Source: Tubulanus polymorphus
Taxonomy: Eukaryota; Animalia; Nemertea
Assembly: GCF_964204645.1 (NCBI RefSeq)
Contig: NC_134026.1
Span: forward strand, 1,387,950-1,451,949
Direction of reading: 5' to 3'
Length of the DNA: 64,000 nt
The notes under the pieces: generated by a model
Databases searched by the model: none
Seen by the model: only the letters and a program-made list of their open reading frames with translations
What the model was told of the DNA's origin: nothing
Shown here: positions 3,701 through 56,400 of the stretch, piece by piece
Layout of the letters: the number at the start of each line of letters is the position of its first letter
How positions within the stretch are numbered: position 1 is the first letter of the stretch
Position numbers and translations under genes: made by a program

Positions 3701-5049
3701 ATTGTTTCGTATCTTGTGCATTTTGTAATTATGGTAGATAGAAATAATAACTCCATATGAAAATTAAGGATAAACAACTGAAAAACATCAATATGAAATT
3801 AACAATCAAGAAAATGCAAATTTGCGTAAAACGCAAATCGTGTCAAACTAGATGGAACCATTATAACAGCATTCAACACAACATGATGAAAATCTGATAG
3901 AATCGTAAAAATATATATTTCAAGACTTTCATAAAACTGAGTATCTACTACAGGAAACAAAACTACAATACGAAAATTGATGAAATTTACACAGTTTGTT
4001 TTTAGATATTTATCCTGGACAACAAATGCTATGAATTGTTGTTGCAGCACAGTTCAAAAATTAAACCACCCTCACCTTCAGACACATAATATGGAGAATT
4101 GTAATAATATATTTTTGCATAAACTATGTATATTACTTACATGTTTTTCTAAACAATTTGTTCTGAATAATCTCTCTAAATAATAACATACATGAGATTA
4201 CAAACCCGCCGTTTTTACAAGGGAAAATTGCGTAATCTCTAACAAATCGACTACCGGTATATCTAATTATTGCTACTAATAAACCAACATAAAACACAAC
4301 AGTACCAGTCGTACACATCGTCAAAATGATTTTTGATCAGAATTTTCAGGCGAAACTTATCACTAAAATCTCCATCTCTCTGAAGCTGAATTGACGTACA
4401 CTGACAATCTATTACTCTATGACAAAACAAAAATAAAGGCAATACACCACGTTACAGTTTGGCATGAGAAACCGTATGCCGGCACATTCATGAACTCTGA
4501 TCAAGTTGGTGATAGTTTGTGGCGTATTTACCTGTAAAAAAACTTAATAAGTACCACAGACAAATCATCAAAATAATATCACAGTATCACTCAAAACGTA
4601 TATTACAGATATAGTGTGTAAATTCATGAGGGTTTGCTGACCAGAATATACGCTTTCGACATATGCAGTTCTATCTCACATCTCTCCCTTATTGAAAATG
4701 CTTTTTTTAAGTTGACCCTTTCAGTGCTCATACAATGAATATTCTTCACAGAAGCAATAACTTTTACTGTTTGAAATGATTCGCCAATTATCCAAATCCT
4801 AGCTCCGTGACTGAAGTAATTTAAATGGGCCTATAGGGCTGCATGAATCAAACACAACTAAGATCATAAGAATATGATATGATATAATGACTATCAAAAG
4901 GAACGATCATTTACCCCAACAAGAAATAAATGCTGCGCAATGTATGCAATTAATGTGTATAGTCATAAACGAAGTCCACAAAACAGTTGATTCAATAGTC
5001 ATCAGTCAATTCATCCTTTGGCAACAGCACTCACGAGAAACTTAACTTG

Positions 5050-5754: not shown

Positions 5755-38682
<32,928 letters not shown>

Positions 38683-39200: not shown

Positions 39201-39830
39201 CATCATGTGACCGTGTTCGCGCGCGGCATGACGGGTATTTTGATATTAATGGCTACCTATAGAAAAATTTCTGTGAAATTAAATGTGTGTTTTGACAACT
39301 GAAATATTCAACAACTGGTCGTTCTACCACGTAATCATCTCGCTCTTTCATGCTTCCCTGAGACATTCTAATTTCAGGTAACTTTTGAACAACATCCATT
39401 GGTAAATGGGCCTATTTGTAACCAACGATCAATTAAAAGTGGTTTGTTTTTTTTACAGCCAGGCAGAGGAGCTAAAATAAATTCCAAATCAATTGATTCT
39501 TGAAAATATTGATGGTGTTCAATAGAAACCTGCCTGTGATTTTTGAGGACTCTTAACTGCACAGGGGCTCGTATCAGAGTTGTAGGTAATGTAAAAACGA
39601 TAATCTGTTTATCCAATGTAGGCCTAATAGTTATTTTATATAGGGCCTACTCTTCATAGACATTTGATTAACGGATTATCGTTTTTACATTACCTACAAC
39701 TCTGATACGAGCCCCTGTGCTTAACTGACAAGAGATCAAACAGGACAAAGTAATGAGATTCCTTTTCACTTTTAGAATTCTTAATAGAGAATGTATTTTT
39801 CTATTTCCAGGTAGTTTTGAAGATCTAAGT

Positions 39831-42800
39831 ATGGCCGGTCGAGGACCTTCGCTGCGATCAATTGGCAAAGTACATTCCGTAGAAACCGAGAATCCGCCGT
39901 TAACTTCGAGTCTTTCGCGAGACGAGGATATTTTACAAATATCGACGTTTGATCCGGAAATCGCGCGCGAAACGACGAAATCGATGCAGAAAATTCTACG
40001 TATATGTAACCCGGGTAACCACGTGTGTTTACGCAATCAGGGAGGTAGCGATTTTCTACACTGTAGACGAAGTATACGTTTAGGTAAAAATTATCTGGAA
40101 TTGCGTAATTTAGTGCAAAAACGCTCGCGATTAGAGTTAATACGAGATTACTGTTGTCGAATACAATCATTAGCCGCGTTTATTAAAGAATTACAAGGTC
40201 TCGTCGCCGAGGAGTACGTCACCTGGCAAAAAGTGACGGCCAGTTGTACGGACGCCGAAATCGGCAAGTCGAATTTAGAGCATTTGCGACCGATCTGCGA
40301 GGATTTACGCTTGCAGATATTTCACTGGAACTCGGTTAAGCAGCATTTACACCGCGACGTCTGGCTCGGCGCGAAACTCGCGACGCTCGGTCACGAGATG
40401 GAATTCGTGCGAATAACGTTCGAACGAATGGTGCACACGGCGTTGTGGTGGACGAGTCGACTCGTGCAACTAGGCGTCGATATTTTCGCTCATATCGATA
40501 TGTCTCGGCTGAGTCAGACGCAGATTTGGAACGTCATGCGCGGTATGGAAGAACTGAATTCGATTCTCGGTTTCATCAAGTCCAACCACATCCATCCATA
40601 CGAATCCAGCGATTTACAGTCGAGTCTTTCGAAGAAAATCGAACTGCCGAAAGATTTCATCGCGTATAAATTCCACGCGCAACAATCGAACGACCTCGCG
40701 TATATTATGCATCCGAATAATTTGAAATCGATCACGTTTTCGAAACTTTTGCATTCGATCGCGGAGACGCACGCTCGATTCGTCGCTGATACCGCCTATC
40801 GATTCTTCTTTCACAACGACGAGTTTCTGACGTTGCTCAAATCGTCGAAAATTCACGATTATTCGTGGTCGGTTTTCAGTAAAAGCGATTCGGCGTTGTC
40901 GACGACGCAGCAGCCGCAGCTGCAGCATCAGGTGCCGTCTGATACGTCCGATTATCACAGCTGCACCGGCAGTCGCACCAGCTTAAGCGATACGTTCCTG
41001 AAAGTCGGAGATCTTCGCGCGCCTGATCTGTCGATGCAGTCCGGACCGCTGTTAGAATTCATGGCGAAAGAAACCGAGTTCACCGTTCAATTTTTGAACA
41101 TCGTCTTTCAGTCGACGAATCATCTGGTGAAAAAAGGCAACCCGTTAACGGCTCACGGACGCGTGCACGCCGAACGACCATTCAACAAATCGAAATCAAC
41201 GGTTCCGACTTCGAGCAGTTCGCAAACTACCGCCGTACCTCCGCCCGGCCCGAAACGACGAAAAACTGTCTCGTGGGGCGATAACGCTGATTCAAACGTT
41301 AAAGCGCACCTCGTGCAGCGTTACTGGGACATGTTGTGGCATAGTTTCGGTAATCATCTTCAAGACATGTTGTTCTCTCATTCGTGGGGACCGGTCGATT
41401 TCACCGAGAAAATGTTCGGTAATATTGATTACTGTCAGGCGACTGTTATCATCATGGCTGTACAGATGGTGAAACAGGTATCGTATAAAGGTACGTTTCA
41501 TCGTAGAAAGTGGAGATTGGCAATTTAACTTTTCATGAAACTGGTATAACTTTATTTTCTGCTCTAATTCCTCCAACTCTTTCCTTATATTTTTACATGC
41601 GCTAGGGCTTATGTGAAATAAGCCAGTCAGAATTGAGTTATCGGCATAATAACAATAACTAAGATAATTTTGAGCTGGTATAAAATCTTCGTCCTAATTT
41701 TTATCCGCAGGTCAAAAGAATCTCATTTCACACCATGAACCATGAAATTTATATTTTCCTAGTAGTAGATAGATATTTTTCTGTTTCAGATCTATTTCCC
41801 GCCGCTTGTATTCCACATTTGTTAGTTGTAGCCAAACGGATGCAAGCACATGCTGCTTTCACTGCTTGGGATATAGGTAAGAGAATGTCCTCCAACTCTC
41901 GGTTAAAGTGAAAAAGACCACTTATCTTTATAAAGGACGCGTGGAAATGGATAGTAATTCTATTTTCTGTACCACTCTCAACTACCTCTCAGAGTGGTTT
42001 ACATACTTGATAATGACATTAATGTTTTATGTAATGGAATTAATAATTGAATAAAACATTAGCAGAAAATAATGCTCATCAAAATGATCAGTCTTAGAAA
42101 ATCAGTTTCCCCGGAAAGATTCATGACTGTTTTGTAGTTAGTTATAGGAGATAATGTATGATTTGTTTCATTCAGGTATTGGAGAATGTCTCGCCAGTTC
42201 AGTAGTCGATCATTGTTATCCCACTCCACTCGTAAATGCTGAATTTTGTACGAAAACGGGTAAAAAACTGCGAGATAGTTTCCAGCCGATGTCCATGTCG
42301 CTTCAAATGATTCAACAATGTATAGACGATGCCACGGATAGAGGTTTGTAACGCTGTGCGGCAGACAGTCATTGTTTGAATCACGAATCGTGTATTTACG
42401 TAAACCTTCTGTTATGATAAATTGACTATGTTTTTTCTATGGTTGAACGTATAACGTTTAAACAGCTGACGACGTTTTGTTTATTCTATTTTAGGGGCGA
42501 GCGTCGGTAAAGTGATGATATCTCGTATGATTCAACTTCCATTGCTTCTACCGGTGATGTTGCGAATTTTGAAATCGAGCGAGAACGCGTTACAGTGGTG
42601 TACGAATAAATCACATGGCTTCCTCAGCACACATTCCATTGGTCCATTCCTGTTAATCACTCAGAGTGATTTGAAAGTACGTAATTCAACAAATGACGAT
42701 ACGGTAGACTGTTTACCGGTAACTCGAACGCTTTCACTTAACTCCTACACGAATCACAACAAAATGTGAATCAAATTCCATTGTTTAACTCTATAATATT

Positions 42801-45800
42801 GCCTCTACTGGTCCAAATTGATTGAGTTAAAAGAGTACTGTGTTACCGGTAGACTGGTATTAATCTCAGTATTTCAAAGTTAATGACAGCAGAACCCACA
42901 TCAGTTGATGATTTAAAAATTCATTCTGACTAAAGTTCCTCATCAGAGATACAAAAATGAAAAGTCTACTGTATGTTTACGCTTCAGAACTGAATGTATA
43001 ATTCTATTATTTGGTTGTATTTAGTTTCTGAGTGATGAAGTTTCAACAGCTGTTCATATGACGCAGAATCTCTGCGATTCTAAAGGTAGCAGATTGGTGC
43101 ACGTAGATAGTTTGATGCAAACCGAACTACGAGATGTTTGGCAAGATTTAAGCGATCTTAGCGGCAGTTTACAGGTAAAACGATCATCCAATATTTCACC
43201 ATCTTAAAGCAATTCTCTCTGTGAAGTTGAATACTTCAGTGATATTATCTGCTGCTCATTTTACCTCAAAATAATTCTTTAAGAAAGATAAAATACAATA
43301 TAAACTTTTAGAACTTTGAAGTCACGAATTAAAAAGATTTTTCAAGCAAGCAATGCCCCTTACTCCTAACAACCTCAAGCTTTCAAGGTAACCGCACTTT
43401 GCCCATGGGCAATTTATTTTACCTAGCGATTATCTGGAGCGTGTATGAAACAACTCTCCGAAGAGATCAGCGACACGGCGACTGAATTTTTCTCCGATGC
43501 AATGCCAACCGGAAAAATTTGGAGACAGAAAAACAATCAAGGTACGACATGGTCATCAATACGGGCATTTCAATCCATCTAATTCTCACTTGTTATGTAG
43601 ATGTAATATTTCTACAGAAACTCCCTAAAGAACTACGTCTACTGGGGTCAGATTGATGGTGGGAAAAAAATGTGAAAAATCCCTTTATTTTGTTGTGAAA
43701 AATAACATGATTTATGCCAATTGTGAAGATGTGAAAAATTGCTAAGATCCCAGAGTTCATCAATCTGACCCCTGCGCGTAACAAAAATAGCGTTTTCAAC
43801 ATGCAGTTCTGGATCCGGTTCCACAGTTGTGAGTTAGAGTTAACTCTGAGTTAAAGTTAGTTCATTTTCAATGTTTTAACTCTTAGAGTCAAATTTAACT
43901 CAGAACTGTGGAACTGGGTTCTGTGTATTATCAACGATAAGGCAGATTTTATCGATTATATAAACATGTGTTTCAGAAGGAGATGGTTTTATTGATACGG
44001 AGGGTAATGACGTGTCCAGTTGTTTTTCACCTCCGACACACACTCCAATATTTATCTCTATATTTATCTCCTTGTATTCATGAGAATTAGTTTAGATTCC
44101 CAAAAATTAAAGTTGTGTACGTAGTTCGCTTTCGTGAAGTCCAAATTGTGACACTAGTTCATATCCTATCTTATCGGCGCACATTCATATTCATTGTCAC
44201 CTTCTGAAAAAGTCAGTGTAAAAAAAAAAGTCGATGCTATATATGGTAATTGTAGACCTGTAGACATCTCCGTGGTACACATTGTTGAAGTTCTTCCGCA
44301 ATTAAGGGTGTATTAAAAAGTTTCATGTAGAAATAGTAGTAATCTGCTCTCTGAAACCTTGATTTCATCTGTTCATGCTGGTTTTACTATAGGCTTTTAA
44401 AAACTATAGATCTCTATTCATATGTCGGGCTCGATTGCATTCATAATCAGTCAATTCACTTCATAAAGTAGATGTGTACAACTTTGCTGATTGTCAAGCC
44501 ACAAGTACGCAACCAAATCTTTGACGCCCTCCCCAGTGGATGCATATGTTCTTCATGAATGGTCATTTACTCCTCGTGTCTCGCTTGAAAACAATTACAC
44601 ATTTCCGATGACGAAAACCTCAGTAGATCCCCATATTGTCTCTATGGCTCCATTCATATAATTTAATCATTACTTAGTTTAGTAATTTTGATGATTGACT
44701 AATGAAATAGCTTATCAGGCGGTGGCCACTGACCTGGCAAATTCAGGAAAATTTGAGAAAAAATTTCGCGAAATTCAGATAATATTGACCACTTGTTTTT
44801 CTTATGGATACGTGATTCGATGAAAAATGAATGAATTGTAACATTCAATCAGTGGAAAGTGGCGCCACCCTGATTATGTGCTTTAGTAATAATACTCAAG
44901 TATTCTAAATTGTATTTTTTCATTACAGAATTTCCGACTGAGGCGAATGAATACGTTCGACACGGTTTAAACGCTATTTTAGAGCCGGTTATAGCCGGCG
45001 CAGAAAAACTAAAGGTCACATCACAACTCGGCGTCATTTCGGTAGCCGTTTCTAAAATGTGCGAAGCGTGGACAGATTTTATACTGAAGGAAAGAATTAG
45101 GTTCAGGTATGTAAAGCTAGTACGTACATGATAAACCCTTTCAGTGCAGTGTATAAATCAGTAATGGACTGTACTAAGTACACCACGTATTAGTAACTAA
45201 CAATGTACCGAAGAGCTGTACGTCCGTTATTCAACACACTGGGGTGGAATTTTTCAAAACTTGCAAATCATCTCCAACACTAAGGTATTGATTAGTCAAC
45301 ACTGAAAAAAGGGTTAATGACTACCAGAAATCTTTGCTTTTTATGCAAAATGGGATCTCAATTTGCTCTTTTTCAATAAACACCATATTGCTTGCCAGTT
45401 CAGACTTGATGGAGGATTGTAAAACTGCATTTGAAATTTCCAATTATGCACTTCGATTGAAAAAGAAAATTATGTAAATTTCAATTGCAAAATGAAACCC
45501 CCTGTTCTGTTCCCGGTAGGTTGGACACTTTAAGATGATGGCTATTTTAAGATGATGATAAGACTACGATATGTTTATATGATGGTTATATTATTTTCTA
45601 TTGCAGTCTTCACGGCGCGTGTCAACTGAAAATTGATTTCGATTACGTCATCTCATGGCTCGACTCTTACATAGAAAATACCGAGGTCAAGCAGAGTGTT
45701 CTTTCTCTGGACGTTTTCAAATACTTGGACGGTATTACGCAATTACTCATGAAACAACCGCCCAGAATCGGGAAAATGACCGAAGAAAAGGGTACGTTTT

Positions 45801-46335: not shown

Positions 46336-48894
46336 CAATGCCTTCCGTGTATAGGTAATGTTTAGTGTACTTAACATGGTGAATTCAAATATTCAGTCAA
46401 CTCTGCTACTAAGGTATATTTGTACCCTATTATTATGGATGAACTTGACTAGCTGTTGGAACTAATAATCGAAGACACTGTAGTTCAATCTCACGCATTT
46501 TCATCAGTGTCTTGAAACTAGGTCCGAACTACAGCGACTTCGTTCAATCACGATTAACTATCTTCAGACTGTTAATTGGACTAACACTTTGTTCACTATT
46601 GGTCTACTAGCTATGAGAACCGAAGTTCTCTGAGCCTCTCCAGTTGGGACAAAAGTGGTCATGAAGTCTGGACTTAGTTCGTAAGATTGACAAAGAATCA
46701 AAATTGGCTTATTTTCTGAAATTTAAGCCTTTTACAGAAGATTGTATGTACAACATTCGAAATCTGAATTCCTATTTCAGCAGAGTTTACTGTATATATG
46801 ATGCACATCTTAGTCTTCTATTCTCTAGATGAGAATCTAAAAACATACATATCATCAGATTGATAAATGTGATAAAGGGTCGAATGAAAGAGATAATGTT
46901 CGATAGATCAGTGTTCGGATTTATGCTTAGTGAGCTTCAGACCGATTCACAAAGCAATAAATCGTCATAGGGACCAAATATGTATCTATGATCGATAAAT
47001 GGCTTGATGGCAATGCTCCGTAGACAGTATTATCAGTATTGTCATATATAAAACATCTATTCATTCATGTCGTTCGTCCAAGTATAATTCATATCAATAT
47101 AACAATCTAGGCATAAAATATTGAGATGTTATTCATTTATATATATATATATATGTATGGACAACGCAATTGTTTTTAAAATAACTTTGCATTGTCAATA
47201 ATTAGAATAATTAACACAGTCACTGCTGACTACAAGACCCCCACTTGCAACTACTAGCTATCTCAAAGCTAAACCTTCTTATATTTGCACCGGAGCAGGG
47301 ATTCGAACCTGATGGCATTGACGTAAACAAACAACGCTTCGTTCTAAATGCTCATTAGTCAATTTTGAAAATGGCTGATTATGTACTGGCTCTATTGCCA
47401 ATTAGGGAGATACTCACAGCCTGAACAGGGGGCAGCAGGGTATTACCACGGAGGCAGTGAATGTGTTAATGATGTATGTATTGTTCGGGATGACGGTAAA
47501 TTACTTCATCTTCATTTAATTCTTATACACAGAACAAAAAAACGTAGTATAGATACATATAATGTGAAATAATGCAATGCACCGTTTCTATGCCAGTATA
47601 ATCATGATGCAATAAAGAATATTATCAAGACGTTTAATAGAAATATGTATCTGAAAACAGTGCATCCTATTGATGTGTTTCAACATATATTTGTGACAGG
47701 AAAACAGCTTCCATTTGGTAAAAATATTGTCTCATCGATGTAAAAAAAAGGTTTTTGTTCAATGCTCAGCTTGTATTAGAAAAAACCCGAATCAATTATA
47801 GGGGTTACCTTTCAAAAAAACTGGGTGATTAGTTTTCATCTATTATAATGGAGGTTTTGGAAACCGAAGAGATATATTTATTTTGTGTGGTATAAAACTG
47901 GTATAATCAATGATTTTTGTTGTCAAACAGCGTAGAATACGTATTATACCCCTCGGTATCGACATATCATATCATATTGTTATATATTTCTTATTGAACT
48001 TAAAGTTAACTTGGAAAAAAATATGAAATATTGATGTGATACATGTATTGCCAAATAATAAGTACTTAAGATATAGTAAACTATTAAATGATAATTTACT
48101 CAATTGTTGGAGTAATATATTTATAAAGTATACAAGACAATATGATATTTTTCATGCCGCCACCACTATCAGCTGCGTCAGGGTTACTTCTGAGATTATT
48201 ACAGAGTTTTTACATTGAAAAAAGAAAAATGAATGAATAATGCAAGCAAATTTTTCCGATTAATATGCGGAGAAAGAAAAAACTATTTGTTAATTTTCGC
48301 TACAAAAAATTCTATTTTCAGCCCGGCAGGTGTATTGGTGTTAGGGTCTCCCAGAGATTTTAGTGTGTGTACCAAAATTTGGCAAAATATTTAATGTAAT
48401 CATAGATCTTTAAGGTGGTTGCAGGTTAGGCTGACCTACCCCCGCCTTTAGTTCAGAGAGACAAGTTGTCAATTCAAACCCGGTTAAGACGTGTGCTTGC
48501 CTAGTTACTTAATACATAGTTCATCAAACCTTACCTTAAATCCGCTCCTACTGAATAAATGTGATCGATATCATATTAGTAGTGACGAGTTCTATGTTGC
48601 TGTTATATATTGATATATTGAATTTAAAACGATGTTGAGGTTTTTATTAAGTAAATTTTATCCGTTTAATATGTATATATATATATATATCTATATATTG
48701 CGATGTTAATTATGATCACACTCTAACTGAACAGAGCAATATGAACTGTGAACATTGTTATTAGTATATATAGGGTATATTGTTATTGTTTGTTGGTGAA
48801 GTTTGAAGTATTATATTCTGTAAGCGTATTTCCCCTTTGGTATTTAAGAATGTGCGAACGAAGTAGATGAAAGATATTTCTGCTGGACACGCTG

Positions 48895-49152
48895 CAGGGT
48901 CCGATCTAAACACTTGTCCGATTGCCCGGGATAAGTATATTCTCATCAGGGCAAGTAGGTTATCATTATCGCTTGTCCGCTGGGCTAGTGCAGTTTTACG
49001 TCACAAAGCTATTTTCCCAATCAATACAACGGATTATAGTGCCACCAATCGGACTGCCTGTGAAGGGCAAGTATTTTTTGGAGGGGGCAAGCGAAATTTC
49101 AGATATGCTTGCCCCGCGGGAAAGTGGCTTTCATTCCTTAGATCGGACCCTG
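48895..49152. mobile_element. MITE, 15-bp perfect TIR CAGGGTCCGATCTAA, 5-bp TSD CGCTG
   Basis: TIRs 48895-48909 and 49138-49152; flanks 48890-48894 and 49153-49157 are both CGCTG. Confidence 0.85.
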
Positions 49153-49183
49153 CGCTGTTGTGAATTTTTGGGCGAAATTCTCT

Positions 49184-49460
49184 CAGAGGCGGATCCAGGG
49201 AGCCTGACGTTAGGTACTTAAAAAAATTCCTAAATGCCCTTCTCGAAGAGAGAAAAAAAAATTCAAAACGTCTTCAGAAACTTATTAAGTTGTATGAGGC
49301 AAAATGTCCTGAGTACAGTTCCTAGTACTGTGCAACGCTATTTCCAATGAATTTTTAGGTTGGGTTTGAGGCTCTTGCCATCCAAACTACTATTCATCAG
49401 GAATCTGAATTCACTAGTTTATGCCCTGTATTTCAAAATTGGACCCTGGAACCGCCGCCA
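49184..49460. mobile_element. Degenerate MITE of the CAGGGGCGGATCCAGGG family
   Basis: CAGAGGCGGATCCAGGG ... CCCTGGAACCGCC. Confidence 0.55.
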
Positions 49461-50072
49461 GCGTTTGCAACCATTGTTTTCATTTACTGTCGTTCTGTGA
49501 TATTCACTCGTTCAATATTATATGTTTTTAACCCAATAGATAACTCGTATTTTTCCTTGATTTCGCTTGATTAGAGATTATCTTCCTTTTTACTGTCCTC
49601 AAATTTTATTCATTGCCCATCATGACAATTATATATCTATATATACATGACCGGTACTTCATTGTATTTGTTCCCGTTCCTTATTTTGTTTTTGTAGTTT
49701 TAGTTTTATTATATTTTTGAGTTGGTGGAACGTTTTTCCTGCCTATATTAGTTAGTAGCGTGGTGATATTAGCTGTGATATTGATGTTTAGATATTGTTA
49801 AATCCTTTGTTTCAGTCTCACTATTTTTGTATGTTCAATCGTGTATTATTGTTCCTTTTAGAATGACAATAAAATAGTTACGAATAAGTATATGCTCCGT
49901 TCATTTTCTTTTTAAAATCTTTCATTCAGAAATTTGATTTTCTCAGAGGACTCGACTCAACACACTGTCCCGTGAGAGGGCCCGGTTTCAAATAATGTCT
50001 TAATGTCAACAGATATAGTTGTGTGATCGGCGGTCGATTTTACATAATTTTTTTTGAAATTGAAGTAGGACT

Positions 50073-50377
50073 ACTTCTTTGTCTTCTTGGGTTTCGTCGA
50101 AGCTGAAATGAATAAAAGAACAACATTCGGTAGTCAAACATTTCTTTATTAATCTTAATTTGCATGTATATCAACTTAACTTTCAAGATTGCCGAGTTCA
50201 GCAATGACTAGGATTTTCTCGACGGCGGTGGAATCTTCAGAATCACTTCTTTGTCTTCTTTGGTTCCGTCGAAGCTGAAATTGAGTAAAAGAAAAACATT
50301 CTGTAGTCACACGTTTCTCAATCATTATTCCTAATTTACATGGGTATCAACTTAGCTTTCAAGATTGCCGAGTTCAG
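50073..50377. repeat. Direct duplication of about 130 bp (50073-50201 and 50245-50377)
   Basis: Shared ACTTCTTTGTCTTCTT...GTCGAAGCTGAAAT...CTTTCAAGATTGCCGAGTTCAG. Confidence 0.85.
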
Positions 50378-50480
50378 TACTTTTTTTACGGCATCTTCTG
50401 TAGTCGCCTTCTAGCATCTTCTTCTTCATCTTGGGAGTCCTGAAATGAAAAAAAAGAGAAGAGCGATGAAAACCTGGTAC

Positions 50481-51267
50481 GGAACAAAACTAATGTCCGA
50501 AAGCTTTTCAGCTCTCCGTCGCCGGTCACATGCCGAGAACACCAGACAAAGAGCCAGCCAGGAATATACTGCCCTCTACACGCCCTCACACAGAACACGA
50601 AAACCAGGATGACGACGCCTTACTTTCACCATTTACCGACAGGGTGTGCCGGGTGACGTCAGTAACTGACAAACCTATCAAATTGCCCAAGCCAAAAATA
50701 GGGCAGCGCAACTGGATTGCCCGCACTAGCACTAGACTTAATCCCGCCCGAAGCAACCCACAGGGAATCAATGAATACTAACACGCAAAGGAAGACAGGG
50801 AAATTAATCCCTGCCCGAAGCAATCCCTTAAAAGGAATCAATGAATATTAGCACGCAAGCGATCCCGCAGTGAATCAATGAATCCTAGCACGCAAAGGAA
50901 CACAGGGAAATTAATCCCTGCCCGAAGCAATCCCTTAAAAGGAATCAATGAATGCTAGAACGCAAAGGAAGACAAGACTAAATCTTTGCCCGAAGCAATT
51001 CCTGAAAAGAAATCAATGAATACTAGTAGACAGTCCAGCTTTACCACTCCATTTTTAACCCGTGCAATCCGACTGACTTGCCCGTCATTGACGTCACCCA
51101 GCACACTCTGTTGATACGTGGGGAGAGTGAGGCCTCGTCATCCTGGTTTTCGTCTTCCGTATGAGGGAGTGTAGAGGGCAGCTATTTCCTGACCGACTCT
51201 TTGTCTGACATCCTCGACACAAGACCAGCAAAGGAGAGCCGACGCTTACGGACATTAGTTTTGTTCC
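50481..51267 (-). ncRNA. Candidate long hairpin RNA (arms 50481-50730 and 51022-51267)
   Basis: Arms about 73% identical as inverted repeats; transitions about 34:9 in favour of G.U pairing on the minus-strand RNA (hand count). Confidence 0.55.
50738..51025. repeat. Tandem ~65-bp repeat, about 4 copies (TTAATCCCTGCCCGAAGCAATCCC...GGAATCAATGAAT)
   Basis: Units visible at about 50738, 50804, 50911 and 50978. Confidence 0.85.
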
Positions 51268-51484
51268 AGCAAATGTTGAAAATCGACAGAGAAATCGGCC
51301 CTGAAAAAAAGAACGGATTAATCCCTGAAAAATTGAACGGGTTAATAAACACGGAACAGTACAGGACAGCACAGAGACAAACAGTAACACATAAAACATA
51401 AAGACGTCGTTCTTCAGGAAGCAGGAACAGGAGCGCAGCGAAGATCGCCAGGATCATGATCGCCAGGAGAATCCACGGAAGCAT
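51182..51484 (-). CDS. Small ORF with an N-terminal hydrophobic helix (MLPWILLAIMILAIFAALLFLLPEERR), possibly spliced
   Basis: TATAAG about 45 nt upstream; after about codon 27 the sequence looks like an intron with two TTTTTCAG acceptors near 51301 and 51325. Confidence 0.35.
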   Translation of the reverse strand: MLPWILLAIMILAIFAALLFLLPEERRLYVLCVTVCLCAVLYCSVFINPFNFSGINPFFFSGPISLSIFNICWNKTNVRKRRLSFAGLVSRMSDKESVRK

Positions 51485-52094
51485 GTCTGCACAGTGTGAG
51501 AGAGCGGAGGTGAATGAGCTCGCCTATGCTTATACACCGTGGTCAGCCGGTGACGTATTCCAATTGTGATCAATAGCGCGTGTGAATGATATCAACAAAC
51601 TCTGAAAAACCGCAAATGTGTCTCTATTGTTGAATGAAAAGCTAAAGGTTCCACTGCCGGGTTAGTCTGAAAACCAGTCGTTTATCGGTTCCCTACACAA
51701 CATGTTTGAACGACGCCGCTAGGTTCTAGAACTGCCGTGCCGGGTTGAATACGCGCCAGTAGCTAGCTGAACAATAAGGCCATAAAAATAGATTACTTGA
51801 TTCCAAACAGCTCCCCTCCAGCCGCCGCCTGTTTTTTTCTTAACTTTTAGAATGATTTATAAACTATACCGACCGATAGCTCGTCACGACTTCAGTTAAA
51901 AATGCACACCAACCATGCCAACGTACAAGTCTTCACAGGGCCATACGGCATAGAGCTTTTGGAATATTTCGTTCGGTATCGGTACGTTATGAAATATTAG
52001 GCCTACACTAATGAATTTTGTGAGTCTCCCTCAAGTTCTGAATGACCTATATTTTCACGAACTTCTGACGAGGATCAAGTACCCGGTATTGAGT

Positions 52095-52266
52095 TTTGAA
52101 TCGGGTCCTCTCACGGGACAGTGTGTTGAATCTTTCCTCTCACGGGACAGTATTTAGAATCGAGTCCTCTCACTTCGGGTCAAGAGTCCTCCTGGCACAT
52201 GGGACAGTGGCTTGAATCGGGTGCCCGACCTCACGGAACACAGCATTGCGAATCGGATCCTCTCAC
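52095..52266. repeat. Minisatellite-like ~30-bp units (GAATCGGGTCCTCTCACGGGACAGT), about 5 degenerate copies
   Basis: Direct inspection. Confidence 0.75.
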
Positions 52267-53422
52267 TTTGACTAAATATTAGGTTCTCTCGAGACAGATC
52301 TAATTAGGGCCAATAAGTTGCCTTCTTCGATTTTACTTTTTTGCAGTGTAGACGCTTAACAAACGTTTAGTGAATAACCACTGGAACCAAAAAGACTACA
52401 TTCACTTTATTTTCGATCGATACTGCCTTTCTGTCTTCTCTTGATCCTAGTTAGTTACCTAATCGTTGGTGGTAAGCTTTTTATAATCGGATGGGCTTAT
52501 ATGTGGTTTGTGAAAATATCCGATCGTGAAACTAAACCACAGACAGGTTACTGACTACTCTTGATCCGACCTTTATTACATCTAATTTTTCGATTTGATG
52601 ATATCATTGATCTGAAATAATCAAATAACGAATAAATTTAGATTATTAACATGTTCTTAACATTTTCAGTGTAGTAAACAATCGAGTTCAGTTACTTCCG
52701 ATATTTCGTCTATAAAATGCAAAGTTTTCATTTTTCATCGGGACCTGTGACGGGACTCAGGTCCTCTCACAGGAGATGCTGCACTGTTGCAGAGAGATAC
52801 CGGTTTCGAAAAAAAATCGATCTCCCTCCACCATCCAGGGCTCCAAAATTTCTTGAAACTATTAAACTTTACAGAAATATCATCTTTAAAATGGCATCTA
52901 CTGATATTAGCAAGAATCTACAACAGCAGGTTCCACTCGAATTCATGTTTAAATGAATCAAGACGCGCCGGGTGCACGTCACTGCGAATCAACAAAAAAT
53001 CATAATTAAATTTTATTCCCGTTCTCTCTCAGTCCATGCTAAAATTAAACGATACCTTGTTTCTCCTAATCAGCCAGGTCATTCCATTGACTGCGATGAA
53101 ATTTCATATTCAATTCTATAGCTGCCGGGTCTGTTGTTAGTTTGGCTAACATGATCATGAATGAATGTATAGGCCTATGTTAGAAGGTGGCAATTAATTA
53201 TTAGAATATAACCAGTAAATGTTTAGCTTTTTCTTTGGTTGCTTCACATGAATATGATATATGATGGGCGACCCACCAAGTTCATGGCCTAAAAATTCAG
53301 TGAAGCTCCTATTATTACATATATATAACCTATAACAACAATCTATATGAAACACCTACATCTCTAAGCAAAACATGTTGAAGTGAAACATATCTGTAAC
53401 TGATTTGACTTCTGGTTTGTAG

Positions 53423-56400
53423 GATGATGATGTATACGATGATAATGAGGATGATATTGATGAAATTGAAGATTGCCCTGATTCCGTTGGCTCGAAGTTG
53501 AAAGCTTGTTTAAATATCAATGATTTAACTGAAGGAACTGAGTTTGAGATCGTTCCATCTGTAACAGAAGATGAGGTTCCTTATTCAGGTAGGCCCCTCT
53601 CCTCACCTATTAGAGTTTTTTGCAAGTTTTTGAATTAACATTAAACTTAAAGCCCTTATAATCTATGCTCGGTTTTCAAGCAAAATCCTGAAAGTGCTTA
53701 AAACTGCTTCATTCCACAGTTAAACTTGAAGGATAAATCTTTTAATGTAAAAAAGTCTTTGAAATCTGCAGACTTCCATTTTTGAAATGTCTCAAAGCAC
53801 TTCATTGGTTTTCGTACCACTTTTGCCTCGACCGTATGCTGCAACGAACCTTTTGAATTTCGAAATATTATGAATGAAGAGTTTGTTTTTGTAGATCAAG
53901 TAAAAAAAGAATATTTTGGAAACGGTAATAATTTGATCGCTCAAGGTGAGGACAGCGATGAGGAGGAGAATAGCGATCTTACTCCTTTCGAGAGAATCGA
54001 AAGAAAGATGCATGATATCTCGGACGGTGAAAATGGTGTGATGAAAATGGTGTTGAAGGAAGGGGCTGGAGCTCGAGTACCGGATGGGGCTTTTGTCAGA
54101 GGTATATCGCTGATTTTATGGTTTTAACTCACTAACTTCAAGCCGTCACTCTGTCTCAACTCTCTCTAAACTGCCCTATTGATGCATAGATAATTCCACG
54201 TAATTCCACGAATGAAATTGGTCTAATTAAAACCTTTTAAACCTGTTAAATTGATCTCAATCCTCAGAGAATCAGAGATGAATCATTATCATCATTACCA
54301 AAAAACATCCTCTTATTGTATTTTTGTCATTACTTAGAATTCATTTGTCAGTCATGAATTTATCTTTGAATAGTCCAATGCAGGGGCGGATCCAGGGGCA
54401 TGTTGTGACAATGTCGACCAATATAAAGGGCATATATTCTTAATTTGGCGGAAAGGCGTATCAGCAAAATTTTTGAAATTTTACTATCATTTTAGAGCTT
54501 TCTGAGCATCTCTGAGAGGCATTTAGTCAAGAAAAGGTTATATGTTTAGGAAAAATATCTATTGTGAATCTCGAGTGGTAACAATGGCAAATTCTGATAC
54601 AGAGAGAAAAAGTAAAAAGGCACTAAAGAATTCCACCCGTGTCGGTCGACACGGTCTAAATCCTCCCCTGCAATGAAGCTTGATGGTATTACATCTCTGT
54701 ACATGATATGTTGTGTGTAGTATGTATGTGAATTAAGTGAATTAAACCGTCATCTCTTAATTTCTATTATTTTCAGTTCATTACAATGGATTCCTCGAAT
54801 ACAGCGATGAACCGTATGACAGTTCAAGATTGCGGGATTGTCCGGAAAAATTCACAGTCGGCGAAAGTGAGTTTGTATTGAATTTTAATTTTGATTTCAC
54901 CAATAAATCAAGAGGTTCAGTTGCTCAAAAAAGTTGGTCGAAGTGGACAAATACCACAGTGACAATTTCATTGAAACGATGGAATTTGTCTAACCAAGTT
55001 TTGAGCAACTGGCCGCTGATAGATGCTTTGGTTATAATGCAGATTTTAGTGGTCACCATGTCGGTTATCCATCGATTAACTTTTGAACATCTGGCCCAAG
55101 AGGATTTCTCGTATTTCTCGAGAATTTTTGTTATTCCGACATCATTAAGAATTAAGAACACGTTTTGCTCCATCAAATTTTTCTGAGGTTTGTTATTCCT
55201 CTGTTTTCAATGATTAATTATTCTGTGATTCAGGTGAAGTGATTCCTGGATGGGAGATAGCAGTGAAAACGATGAAGAAAGGAGAATTGAGTCGATTTCT
55301 CATCAAGTCTGATTACTCGTATGGACCGAGGGGATGTCCGCCTCGTATACCCCCTGCAGCTGCTAGTCAGTACCTTTTGATATTTTTCATTGTCTGTCGT
55401 AGCTAAGCATCATAAACCTCATTAGAGGAGGACACACAAAACATCGATGTACTACTACTTGTATTTATGTTTTATTTGTATTTATACTATGCAGGGTGCT
55501 ACTGAAATGGAAAACCTGACAAGTGTTTATCAATACGTGATTCATGAACAGATAAATGAATAAATTCTAACATTCAAAGATATCTCCATTCATCAGTAGA
55601 TTCACTAAAAACATGGTTAAAACATGGAAAACTCGGGAAATTTTTGGGGCCACCTTGATGATGTTGTGCAGATGTAGTTGTTTTCATACTCACTGGTATT
55701 TGATATATCTATTGTGTTTGTTTTTGTTACAGTTTTATTCGAAATTGAGGTGCTCAGTTTTATGGATAGGTCGGGGGTTGATTCCTTCTTCAATAAAAAT
55801 AGGGTGTGTATTTCATTATAGAAATTCATGTATCCGATAGTTTTAATTCTTCTAACATCCATCTCTTCGTTTCAATGATTTATTTTAGAGAGATCGATTG
55901 GAAACTCCGTTCTCTGATGTTATGAGAGCAGTTAGGGCGGAAGAAGAGGTAACTAACGTGAAGTTCGCTTTCTACTATTGTTTTCTAGTTTTCTTGCTTT
56001 AAACCTTCTCTTTTTTCGCATTACAGATGGCAAAAGACCAGTGGAAACGCCAGAAATATAACAAAGCACTCGTTAGATACCAACGGGTAAAAATCTTTAT
56101 AAATTTTCACTGAAAGATGATATTTCTCTAGGTTCCGCGTAGTGTCGTACTTACGACTTGTATCAATGCTGTATTTTAGATAGTGACACGAGCGTTGGAA
56201 GAGGCTCGACTCGAAAATGCTGAAGACGAAACTATTCAACAGAAGCATCTTCACAAAAACTATCTTAACCTAGCGCGGTGTGCTTTAAGACAGGGCGAGT
56301 ATGAAAGAGCGCGAAGCAATTGTCGTAAGGCCCTCGATATCAAGAGGGATGCGCCAACATTATTTTTAATGGGCAAGGTAAATGAAATTTGAAACTTTGC

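Follow-up and report, generated by a model that had tools for sequence, protein, structure and literature searches.

Between the 3' end of a CCDC142-like gene (stop near 46337) and FKBP6, a piRNA (PIWI-interacting RNA) pathway factor, both encoded on the plus strand, the genome of the nemertean Tubulanus polymorphus carries a repeat-rich element, and the locus raises the question of whether this is one mobile element, a hairpin RNA gene, or a row of separate repeats. The element was analysed within a window of 64,000 nucleotides (assembly GCF_964204645.1, contig NC_134026.1, positions 1,387,950 to 1,451,949; coordinates below are those of the window), with statements about the repeat family drawn from reads and contigs of sequencing runs mapped to the 64-kb window, and with published systems cited from excerpts of their sources. 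It is likely that the locus contains a multi-copy, gene-like unit bearing a selected RNA hairpin, a claim common to our preferred reading and its closest rival. The element is one copy of a family of 150–200 copies, and our preferred, though tentative, reading is that this family represents a rearranged non-autonomous foldback-type DNA transposon, the middle of which would be an unspliced hairpin RNA unit cut into small RNAs.

The initial annotation placed two hairpin arms around a tandem-repeat loop, and this arrangement is present, with strong structure on the minus strand (Table 1). Both arms contain TGACGTCA, and the fold predicted for the long inverted repeat is an extended RNA duplex of ~250 bp, as in hairpin RNA (hpRNA) genes, with the minus strand of 50470–51280 folding at -455 kcal/mol (z -24.5, 20 shuffles) compared with -327 kcal/mol for the plus strand. 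Alignment of the arms over 260 pairs gives 196 Watson-Crick pairs, 39 pairs that are G-U on the minus strand, 9 that are G-U on the plus strand, and 16 others, with 39 of the 48 transition mismatches between the arms being G-U on the minus strand (p 1.5e-5). The bias is present on both arms (22 U-G, 17 G-U) and in the outer half of the hairpin (15 G-U on minus vs 0 on plus), with the controls (the array pair described below and four further inverted repeats in the 64 kb, all short) showing 5 vs 7 combined. The pairing pattern is most simply explained by selection acting to keep one strand paired. ADAR editing as the source of the G-U pairs was rejected; ADAR avoids a 5' G neighbour, and a 5' G precedes 13 of the 39 G-U guanines, a share at least as high as that among the A-U adenines (27 of 97).

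All six majority read alleles listed within the 5' arm (51154, 51168, 51222, 51227, 51230, and 51248) restore Watson-Crick pairs, which suggests that the family pairs better than the window copy, a slightly decayed member. Cross-mapping between the arms is an unlikely explanation of these alleles, since the depth on each arm (1270–1420) matches that on adjoining non-arm sequence (1395). The loop units were also considered as microRNA (miRNA) hairpins or ribozymes, and rejected as such, as their folding does not exceed that of shuffled sequence (z -1.5 to +0.5) and they have no Rfam match; Rfam covariance models run on the element gave four matches, all at E 1.6–3.8 and below the gathering score. 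TAGCAC occurs on the plus strand at three of five loop positions (50731–50965), and its minus-strand complement covers positions 1–6 only, which is no canonical miR-29 seed match.

The interior of the element is a real repeat family, the promoter side of which travels along in most copies. In X5, a raw genomic run of which ~12 in 100 was read, single-copy depth has a mean of 6.8 (10 of 30 bins, range 3.4–9.5; three ambiguous bins of 11–18 excluded), and the core (about 50150–51780) reaches a depth of 1000–1400, equivalent to up to 150–200 copies. The same comparison gives 150–206 copies for the hairpin arms and 5' part and ~40 for the loop, together with ~300 at 49952–50053, ~25 at 50054–50155, ~60 (peaks near 120) at 51584–51685, ~30 at 51788–51889, ~1.5 at 51890–52093, ~160 over the right array, ~2 at 52196–52297, and ~23 at 52604–52705, with 52196–52399 single- or near-single-copy. 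Of the other runs, X6 gave no records on the window and X7 a single unrelated one, and neither was used as evidence. The multi-copy state extends to the promoter side (depth 769–861 at 51559–51616), which argues against plain retroposition. Copies differ in the loop, in the number of 3' units (one or two), and in a promoter block of 102 bp, with many copies containing only one 3' unit (joint 50201–50413, supported by 136 reads of X5 and a contig of X9) and most having 51637–51738 replaced by 23 nt. The element sequence is repeated nowhere else in the 64-kb window.

An array of ~30-bp units at the right end, and an inverted copy of the terminal unit on the left, were both claimed in the initial annotation and both exist, the period being 29 bp. 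The tandem repeats thus stand in inverted orientation on both sides, as in foldback and Mutator-type elements. The 16-nt core of the unit occurs three times in the 64 kb, each time within one of the two arrays (0.11 expected; 0 of 100 shuffles reached three), and because the unit is absent from the rest of the 64 kb, the placement of two inverted arrays 2.1 kb apart is not random. Elsewhere, the units form longer arrays, as indicated by joints that lead backwards (651 and 352 reads). To the left of the left array the flank is single-copy in X5, with one X1 unitig spanning 49125–49993, and a T-run is found on the left edge only. The single-copy spacer between the core and the right array was recovered in both X1 and X5 with shared allelic differences, and as these runs come from two studies, the insertion is found beyond the assembled animal. 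The sequence on either side of the short segment 50009–50053 is different in other copies, with loose ends in 2854 reads before 50009 (agreement 0.83), sharing one common other continuation, and in 983 reads behind 50053 (agreement 0.6). The pattern fits the arrays being the true ends of a rearranged, Tetris-like foldback copy, but also a nest of repeats.

Table 1. Features of the element and of the adjoining FKBP6 start, in window coordinates.
Feature	Position	Strand	Detail
Left array, ~two 29-bp units, inverted relative to right array	49945-49999	-	87-89% complementary
Short high-copy segment (~300 copies)	50009-50067		Depth 2043 vs 6.8; right limit 50067 by eye
Two duplicated 172/176-bp 3' units	50073-50201 and 50245-50377 (span 50073-50377)	-	86% identical
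AATAAA, likely polyadenylation signal	50145-50150	-	Only minus-strand match in 49900-51540; RNA-like contigs end near 50152
Strong acceptor-like tract	50440-50465	-	Crossed by X8 contig 50245-50549 and X9 contig 50289-50454
3' arm of long hairpin	~50468-50732	-	~190 copies
Loop, five repeat units of 43-107 bp, variable between copies	50735-51030	-	~40 copies at 80% likeness
5' arm of long hairpin	~51020-51278	-	218 of 244 nt pair with 3' arm in minimum-energy fold; longest helix 35 bp
100-aa open reading frame, hydrophobic N-terminus	51182-51484	-	ATG at 51484; coding status unsupported
TATA-like box TATAAG (51529-51534) and cAMP response element (CRE) half-site TGACGT (51551-51556)	51529-51556	-	Likely core promoter
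Upstream part of repeat, ~60-125 copies falling to ~30	51557-51870		Right limit from bin depth, ~15 bases either way
Spacer between core and right array, single-copy	51890-52093		Depth 9.4 and 10.6 vs 6.8
Right array, 29-bp units, outer ones degenerate	52094-52270	+	Tandem Repeats Finder period 29, 2.6 clean copies plus degenerate
Independent 110-bp miniature inverted-repeat transposable element (MITE), 12-bp inverted ends	52448-52557		Perfect 10-bp target duplication 52438-52447 / 52558-52567
~20-copy outer segment	52558-52778		Depth 153
FKBP6 first exon	52786-52929	+	RNA-like X8 contig from 52786; ATG 52891; coding part 52891-52929

The TATA-like box and CRE half-site named in the initial annotation are both in place, and the interior is probably transcribed. 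Contigs of X8 and X9, which derive from one sample of one study and the kind of which is not on record, cover 50152–50665 and 51176–51486. X8 yields a contig on the single-copy 5' end of FKBP6 (depth 7.4) but no contig on the array, with its 160 copies, or on the promoter block upstream, and X8 and X9 therefore behave like RNA. The absence of a transposase, as first claimed, is borne out over a multi-copy interior that read depth reveals as a family, with no transposase or other Pfam domain matched in 47 frames at E 0.001; 56 frames of at least 30 codons are present in the element, of which 47 were Pfam-scanned, three were scanned separately, and six short ones were left out. Three further open reading frames (ORFs) of the element gave weak matches only, below the cut-off. 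A viral origin, also suggested initially, is not supported, as two IMG/VR scans returned no match. A scan of metagenomes with the hairpin-arm pattern returned no loci, and four loci returned by a two-unit array pattern were rejected as chance, none aligning to the element; one of the metagenome loci (positions 3950–4310 of its own sequence) is a bacterial gene with a 30-bp coding repeat, which by chance has two short motifs in common with the 29-bp unit.

Under the foldback reading, a transposase supplied in trans would bind the 29-bp arrays and move arrays and core together, the window copy having probably lost its outer left flank and being in decay. Transcription of the minus strand by RNA polymerase II would begin close to the TATA box (51529) and reach the AATAAA (50145), giving an unspliced RNA of 1.4 kb, and RNA-level selection would have kept G-U pairs and purged A-C mismatches, such that the RNA stays double-stranded with a DNA palindrome only ~75% perfect. 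The weakest step would be the conversion of the stem into small RNAs by Dicer-1 or Drosha, or by the piRNA pathway, together with their proposed effect, in which these RNAs may repress either the autonomous partner of the family or some other selfish target.

A number of observations weigh against this scheme. Target-site duplications (TSDs) of at least six bases were absent at the tested boundaries (49936–49951 vs 52165–52299 and 52740–52829; ends imprecise), no convincing TSD of 4–5 bases was seen at the element boundaries, and the 8–10 bp duplication typical of foldback elements was not found, the true ends not being fixed. Beyond the arrays, five inverted comparisons gave no significant inverted similarity (p 0.06–0.82), and long terminal inverted repeats (TIRs) with matching outer and inner domains are lacking, though the copy may be rearranged; diverged long TIRs proposed by eye were rejected after failing against shuffles. 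Single-copy stretches lie between the right array and the core and between that array and the outer segment, most reads over 50009 run on into other sequence, modules differ tenfold in copy number, and no other copy joining arrays and core was found among the reads and contigs seen. Since single-copy spacers flank the right array and a TSD is absent, co-movement of arrays and core can only be presumed. Additionally, X8 and X9 are not on record as RNA, their contigs show neither strand, start, nor end, and one X8 contig continues for 48 letters beyond 51486 and would thereby span the TATA-like box. The letters of the contigs match other copies and not the window copy, so that the transcripts would be those of other copies. 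The read variants rest on 40 of 448 and 40 of 346, which makes the family-wide G-U share an extrapolation, and the arms have no complementary target within the 64-kb window. Furthermore, the excerpted text of PMC11114477 reports nemerteans to be without DICER2 and the gonads of Notospermus without an endogenous small interfering RNA (siRNA) signature, with an siRNA-type Argonaute kept in Notospermus, the cargo of which in nemerteans is given there as unknown; Tubulanus is not named in the main text of that paper.

The most direct competitor, itself rather unlikely, is a nest of separate repeats, in which a dispersed hairpin RNA gene family spread by another route lies amid pieces of an array element and a MITE, the arrays being neighbours or part of a one-off composite. 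Such a nest would explain why modules of ~300, 25, 200, 40, 30, 1.5, 160, 2, and 23 copies stand in a row, with single-copy spacers between them, loose ends to the left and right of 50009–50053, no TSD, and a proven independent MITE lying inside, and it has a precedent in the satellite-flanked Dox and hpRNA genes of Drosophila described in the excerpt of 10.1101/2021.08.05.454923. It sits poorly, however, with arrays that are inverted relative to each other and missing from the remaining 61 kb, and with three separate edge modules sharing similar counts of 23–31 copies, as a full-length subfamily would give. Very unlikely is a non-autonomous Helentron (HINE), for which rolling-circle movement would have captured the modules and a single-stranded DNA intermediate, not RNA, would have produced a G-T bias. 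The missing TSD, the T-run at the left edge, the patchwork of copy numbers, and a 5-bp palindrome at 52780–52793 are all compatible with a HINE, as is the better folding of the minus strand as DNA also (-184 vs -158). Known HINEs, however, as excerpted from PMC4067079, have single 12–15 bp subterminal inverted repeats (subTIRs) and a 3' palindrome 8–35 bp from the end, compared with arrays here; the best outer pair matches at 12 of 16 positions (by eye), the candidate palindrome lies outside the repeat because 52794 is single-copy, and the TATA box, the AATAAA, and the RNA-like contigs account for the strand without single-stranded DNA.

A solo long terminal repeat (LTR) or other retro-derived unit, with a U3 promoter, a long structured R, a polyadenylation signal, and G-U pairs left by editing of an RNA intermediate, is less probable again. 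Promoter, hairpin, and polyadenylation signal do fall within one multi-copy block of 1.8 kb, over the transcribed part of which copy number is highest, but TG...CA ends with a matching duplication were not seen (at least 7 bases around the core, plus by eye; ends imprecise), and the neighbour context of the G-U pairs given above lacks the mark of ADAR. The least probable explanation is a family of spliced small-protein genes, comprising an exon with a signal or transmembrane (TM) sequence, an intron that contains the hairpin, and short basic exons, an idea close to the spliced RNA and the duplicated exon/intron units of the initial annotation. The two units are indeed duplicated, and the acceptor at 50440 is strong; the minus strand of 50100–51540, however, holds three acceptor matches and no donor match, and contigs 50245–50549, 50289–50454, 51244–51369, and 51210–51410 run unspliced through acceptor-like sites; the joints listed are 15 of 210, so that minor spliced forms may exist. 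As the contigs cross the acceptors and no strong donor exists, spliced exons are not supported. The ORF beginning at ATG 51484 does have the hydrophobic N-terminus first attributed to it, with a peak of 3.07 reached by 0.25% of 2000 shuffles (90% of which give a window above 1.6), in a region chosen after seeing it, and 7 of 13 clean variants are synonymous (5 variants beside indels excluded). Against a TM micro-protein, no homologue was found among six candidates, two matches among 1.84 billion sequences were rejected as repeat-summed, repeat-protein artefacts, hairpin pairing is likewise restored by three of those seven synonymous variants, and in a subfamily the hydrophobic stretch carries two single-base insertions (300 reads each), the net frame effect of which is not visible. 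The micro-ORF is probably non-coding.

On the FKBP6 side, the features lie where the initial annotation put them, but repeat-derived sequence goes on to ~52770 and includes a 110-bp MITE that was missed; the distance to the first FKBP6 exon, given there as ~1 kb, is 620 bp from 52270 to 52891. The MITE is independent of the element, with 2568 and 3654 loose-end reads at its two ends (agreement 0.33–0.34) and a MITE-free joint 52447–52573 in X1, X2, and X5, and its 10-bp duplication is of a length that we take to be Mutator-like. It has several hundred copies, with longer versions carrying extra sequence at 52501/52502, and is present in the RNA-like runs. The outer segment ends in a head-to-head pair of array-like units (52736–52778; 86% over 21 nt), which forms a hairpin (z -2.7 on plus, -4.2 on minus). 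Repeat-derived sequence stops at about 52760–52775, ~15 bases short of the start of the RNA-like FKBP6 contig, a contig end not being a start site, and the proximal promoter of FKBP6 thus appears, at this one locus, to be occupied by repeat-derived sequence. In the FKBP6 model, a 13-codon exon is followed by a first intron whose GT donor (GTTCCA, 52929–52935) is weak and which holds a ~25-copy repeat at 53018–53268 (depth 187), and the exon at 53897 matches an 'FKBP6-like' protein of T. polymorphus.

On the other side of the element, the one-exon ORF 39834–41504 is a 100% match to a T. polymorphus protein with a CCDC142 domain, its 557 codons forming the single first exon of the CCDC142-like gene. 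Other repeats of the window include a 258-bp MITE at 48895–49152, which has a 5-bp duplication and whose perfect inverted ends of 15 bp begin with CAG (about 140 or more copies by depth), a second CAG-ended repeat with a 5-bp duplication at 54381–54670 in an FKBP6 intron, and a lone similar end at 49184–49200. Two copies of a 100-bp palindromic repeat, 91% identical, lie at 17652–17752 and 43815–43917, with further palindromes at 37306–37426 and 39559–39720, the latter just upstream of the CCDC142-like start.

As described in the excerpt of PMC4079207, tandem repeats lie within the ends of foldback elements, the middle is non-coding and variable, and rearranged forms are numerous. The element resembles the foldback Tetris of Drosophila virilis (PMC4079207) and Galileo (cited there) in being non-autonomous with inverted tandem repeats at its sides and a variable non-coding middle, and resembles Tetris further in the longer arrays of its unit elsewhere and in its rearranged copies. 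In contrast to Tetris as excerpted there, it lacks the 8–10 bp TSD and matching outer and inner TIR domains, and its middle is a promoter-hairpin-polyadenylation unit with an internal inverted repeat of its own. The Drosophila hpRNA genes Nmy, Tmy, and hp-CG4068 (PMC10317233; 10.1101/2021.08.05.454923, both as excerpted) likewise have an mRNA-like transcript, here a candidate, that includes a long inverted repeat; they can be multi-copy and repeat-flanked, and their duplex is poorly covered in RNA-seq. The element differs from them in its 150–200 copies, in having no target in the window, and in a host phylum reported without DICER2. As the TSD and long-TIR tests fail and any siRNA output is hypothetical, the element is assigned neither to the foldback elements nor to the hpRNA genes.

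Similarities extend to other systems. Pack-TYPE TIR elements (excerpt of PMC8903248, on plants) are also non-autonomous with unrelated cargo, and can form composites from neighbouring insertions, but the cargo here matches no coding gene, and TIR and TSD are not established. HINE and DINE-1 (excerpt of PMC4067079) share the lack of coding capacity and the internal tandem repeats, and probably also the lack of TSD and the T-rich left flank, no empty site being seen among the reads and contigs listed, with arrays here in place of single subTIRs and no 3' palindrome shown inside the repeat. Invertebrate giant miRNA hairpins (excerpt of PMC12553114) are comparable in their several hundred bases, well-paired base, and structured inter-arm region, the differences being that the element has no conserved miRNA match in Rfam and is a repeat family, not a conserved locus. 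For the FKBP6 neighbourhood the closest comparison is with CERP2/CELE2, MITE-derived germline promoters in Caenorhabditis (excerpt of 10.1101/2022.01.21.477252), in which a paired motif from transposon ends likewise lies immediately upstream of a germline-type gene, though here at a single candidate locus. No description of the element, or of a spiralian transposon with an internal G-U hairpin gene, was found in the literature searched, subscription journals, Repbase, and Dfam being outside its scope.

Non-autonomous DNA transposons are as a rule inert cargo, and their hairpins arise from pairing of the two ends and are strand-symmetric. Here, an internal hairpin bears a strand-specific sign of selection on RNA structure, within a family of 150–200 copies. 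This natural G-U design parallels that of engineered G:U hairpin transgenes, which avoid self-silencing in plants (excerpt of PMC9263138). The family is a candidate substrate for the nemertean siRNA-type Argonaute in a phylum reported without DICER2 (excerpt of PMC11114477). At its most far-reaching, and improbably, the element would be a mobile hairpin RNA gene, in which a DNA transposon spread 150–200 promoter-driven, G-U-stabilised hairpins that feed an orphan siRNA-type Argonaute without Dicer-2, and one terminal motif pair of which now forms the FKBP6 proximal promoter. The location at the start of FKBP6 bears on transposon-derived control of a piRNA-pathway gene.

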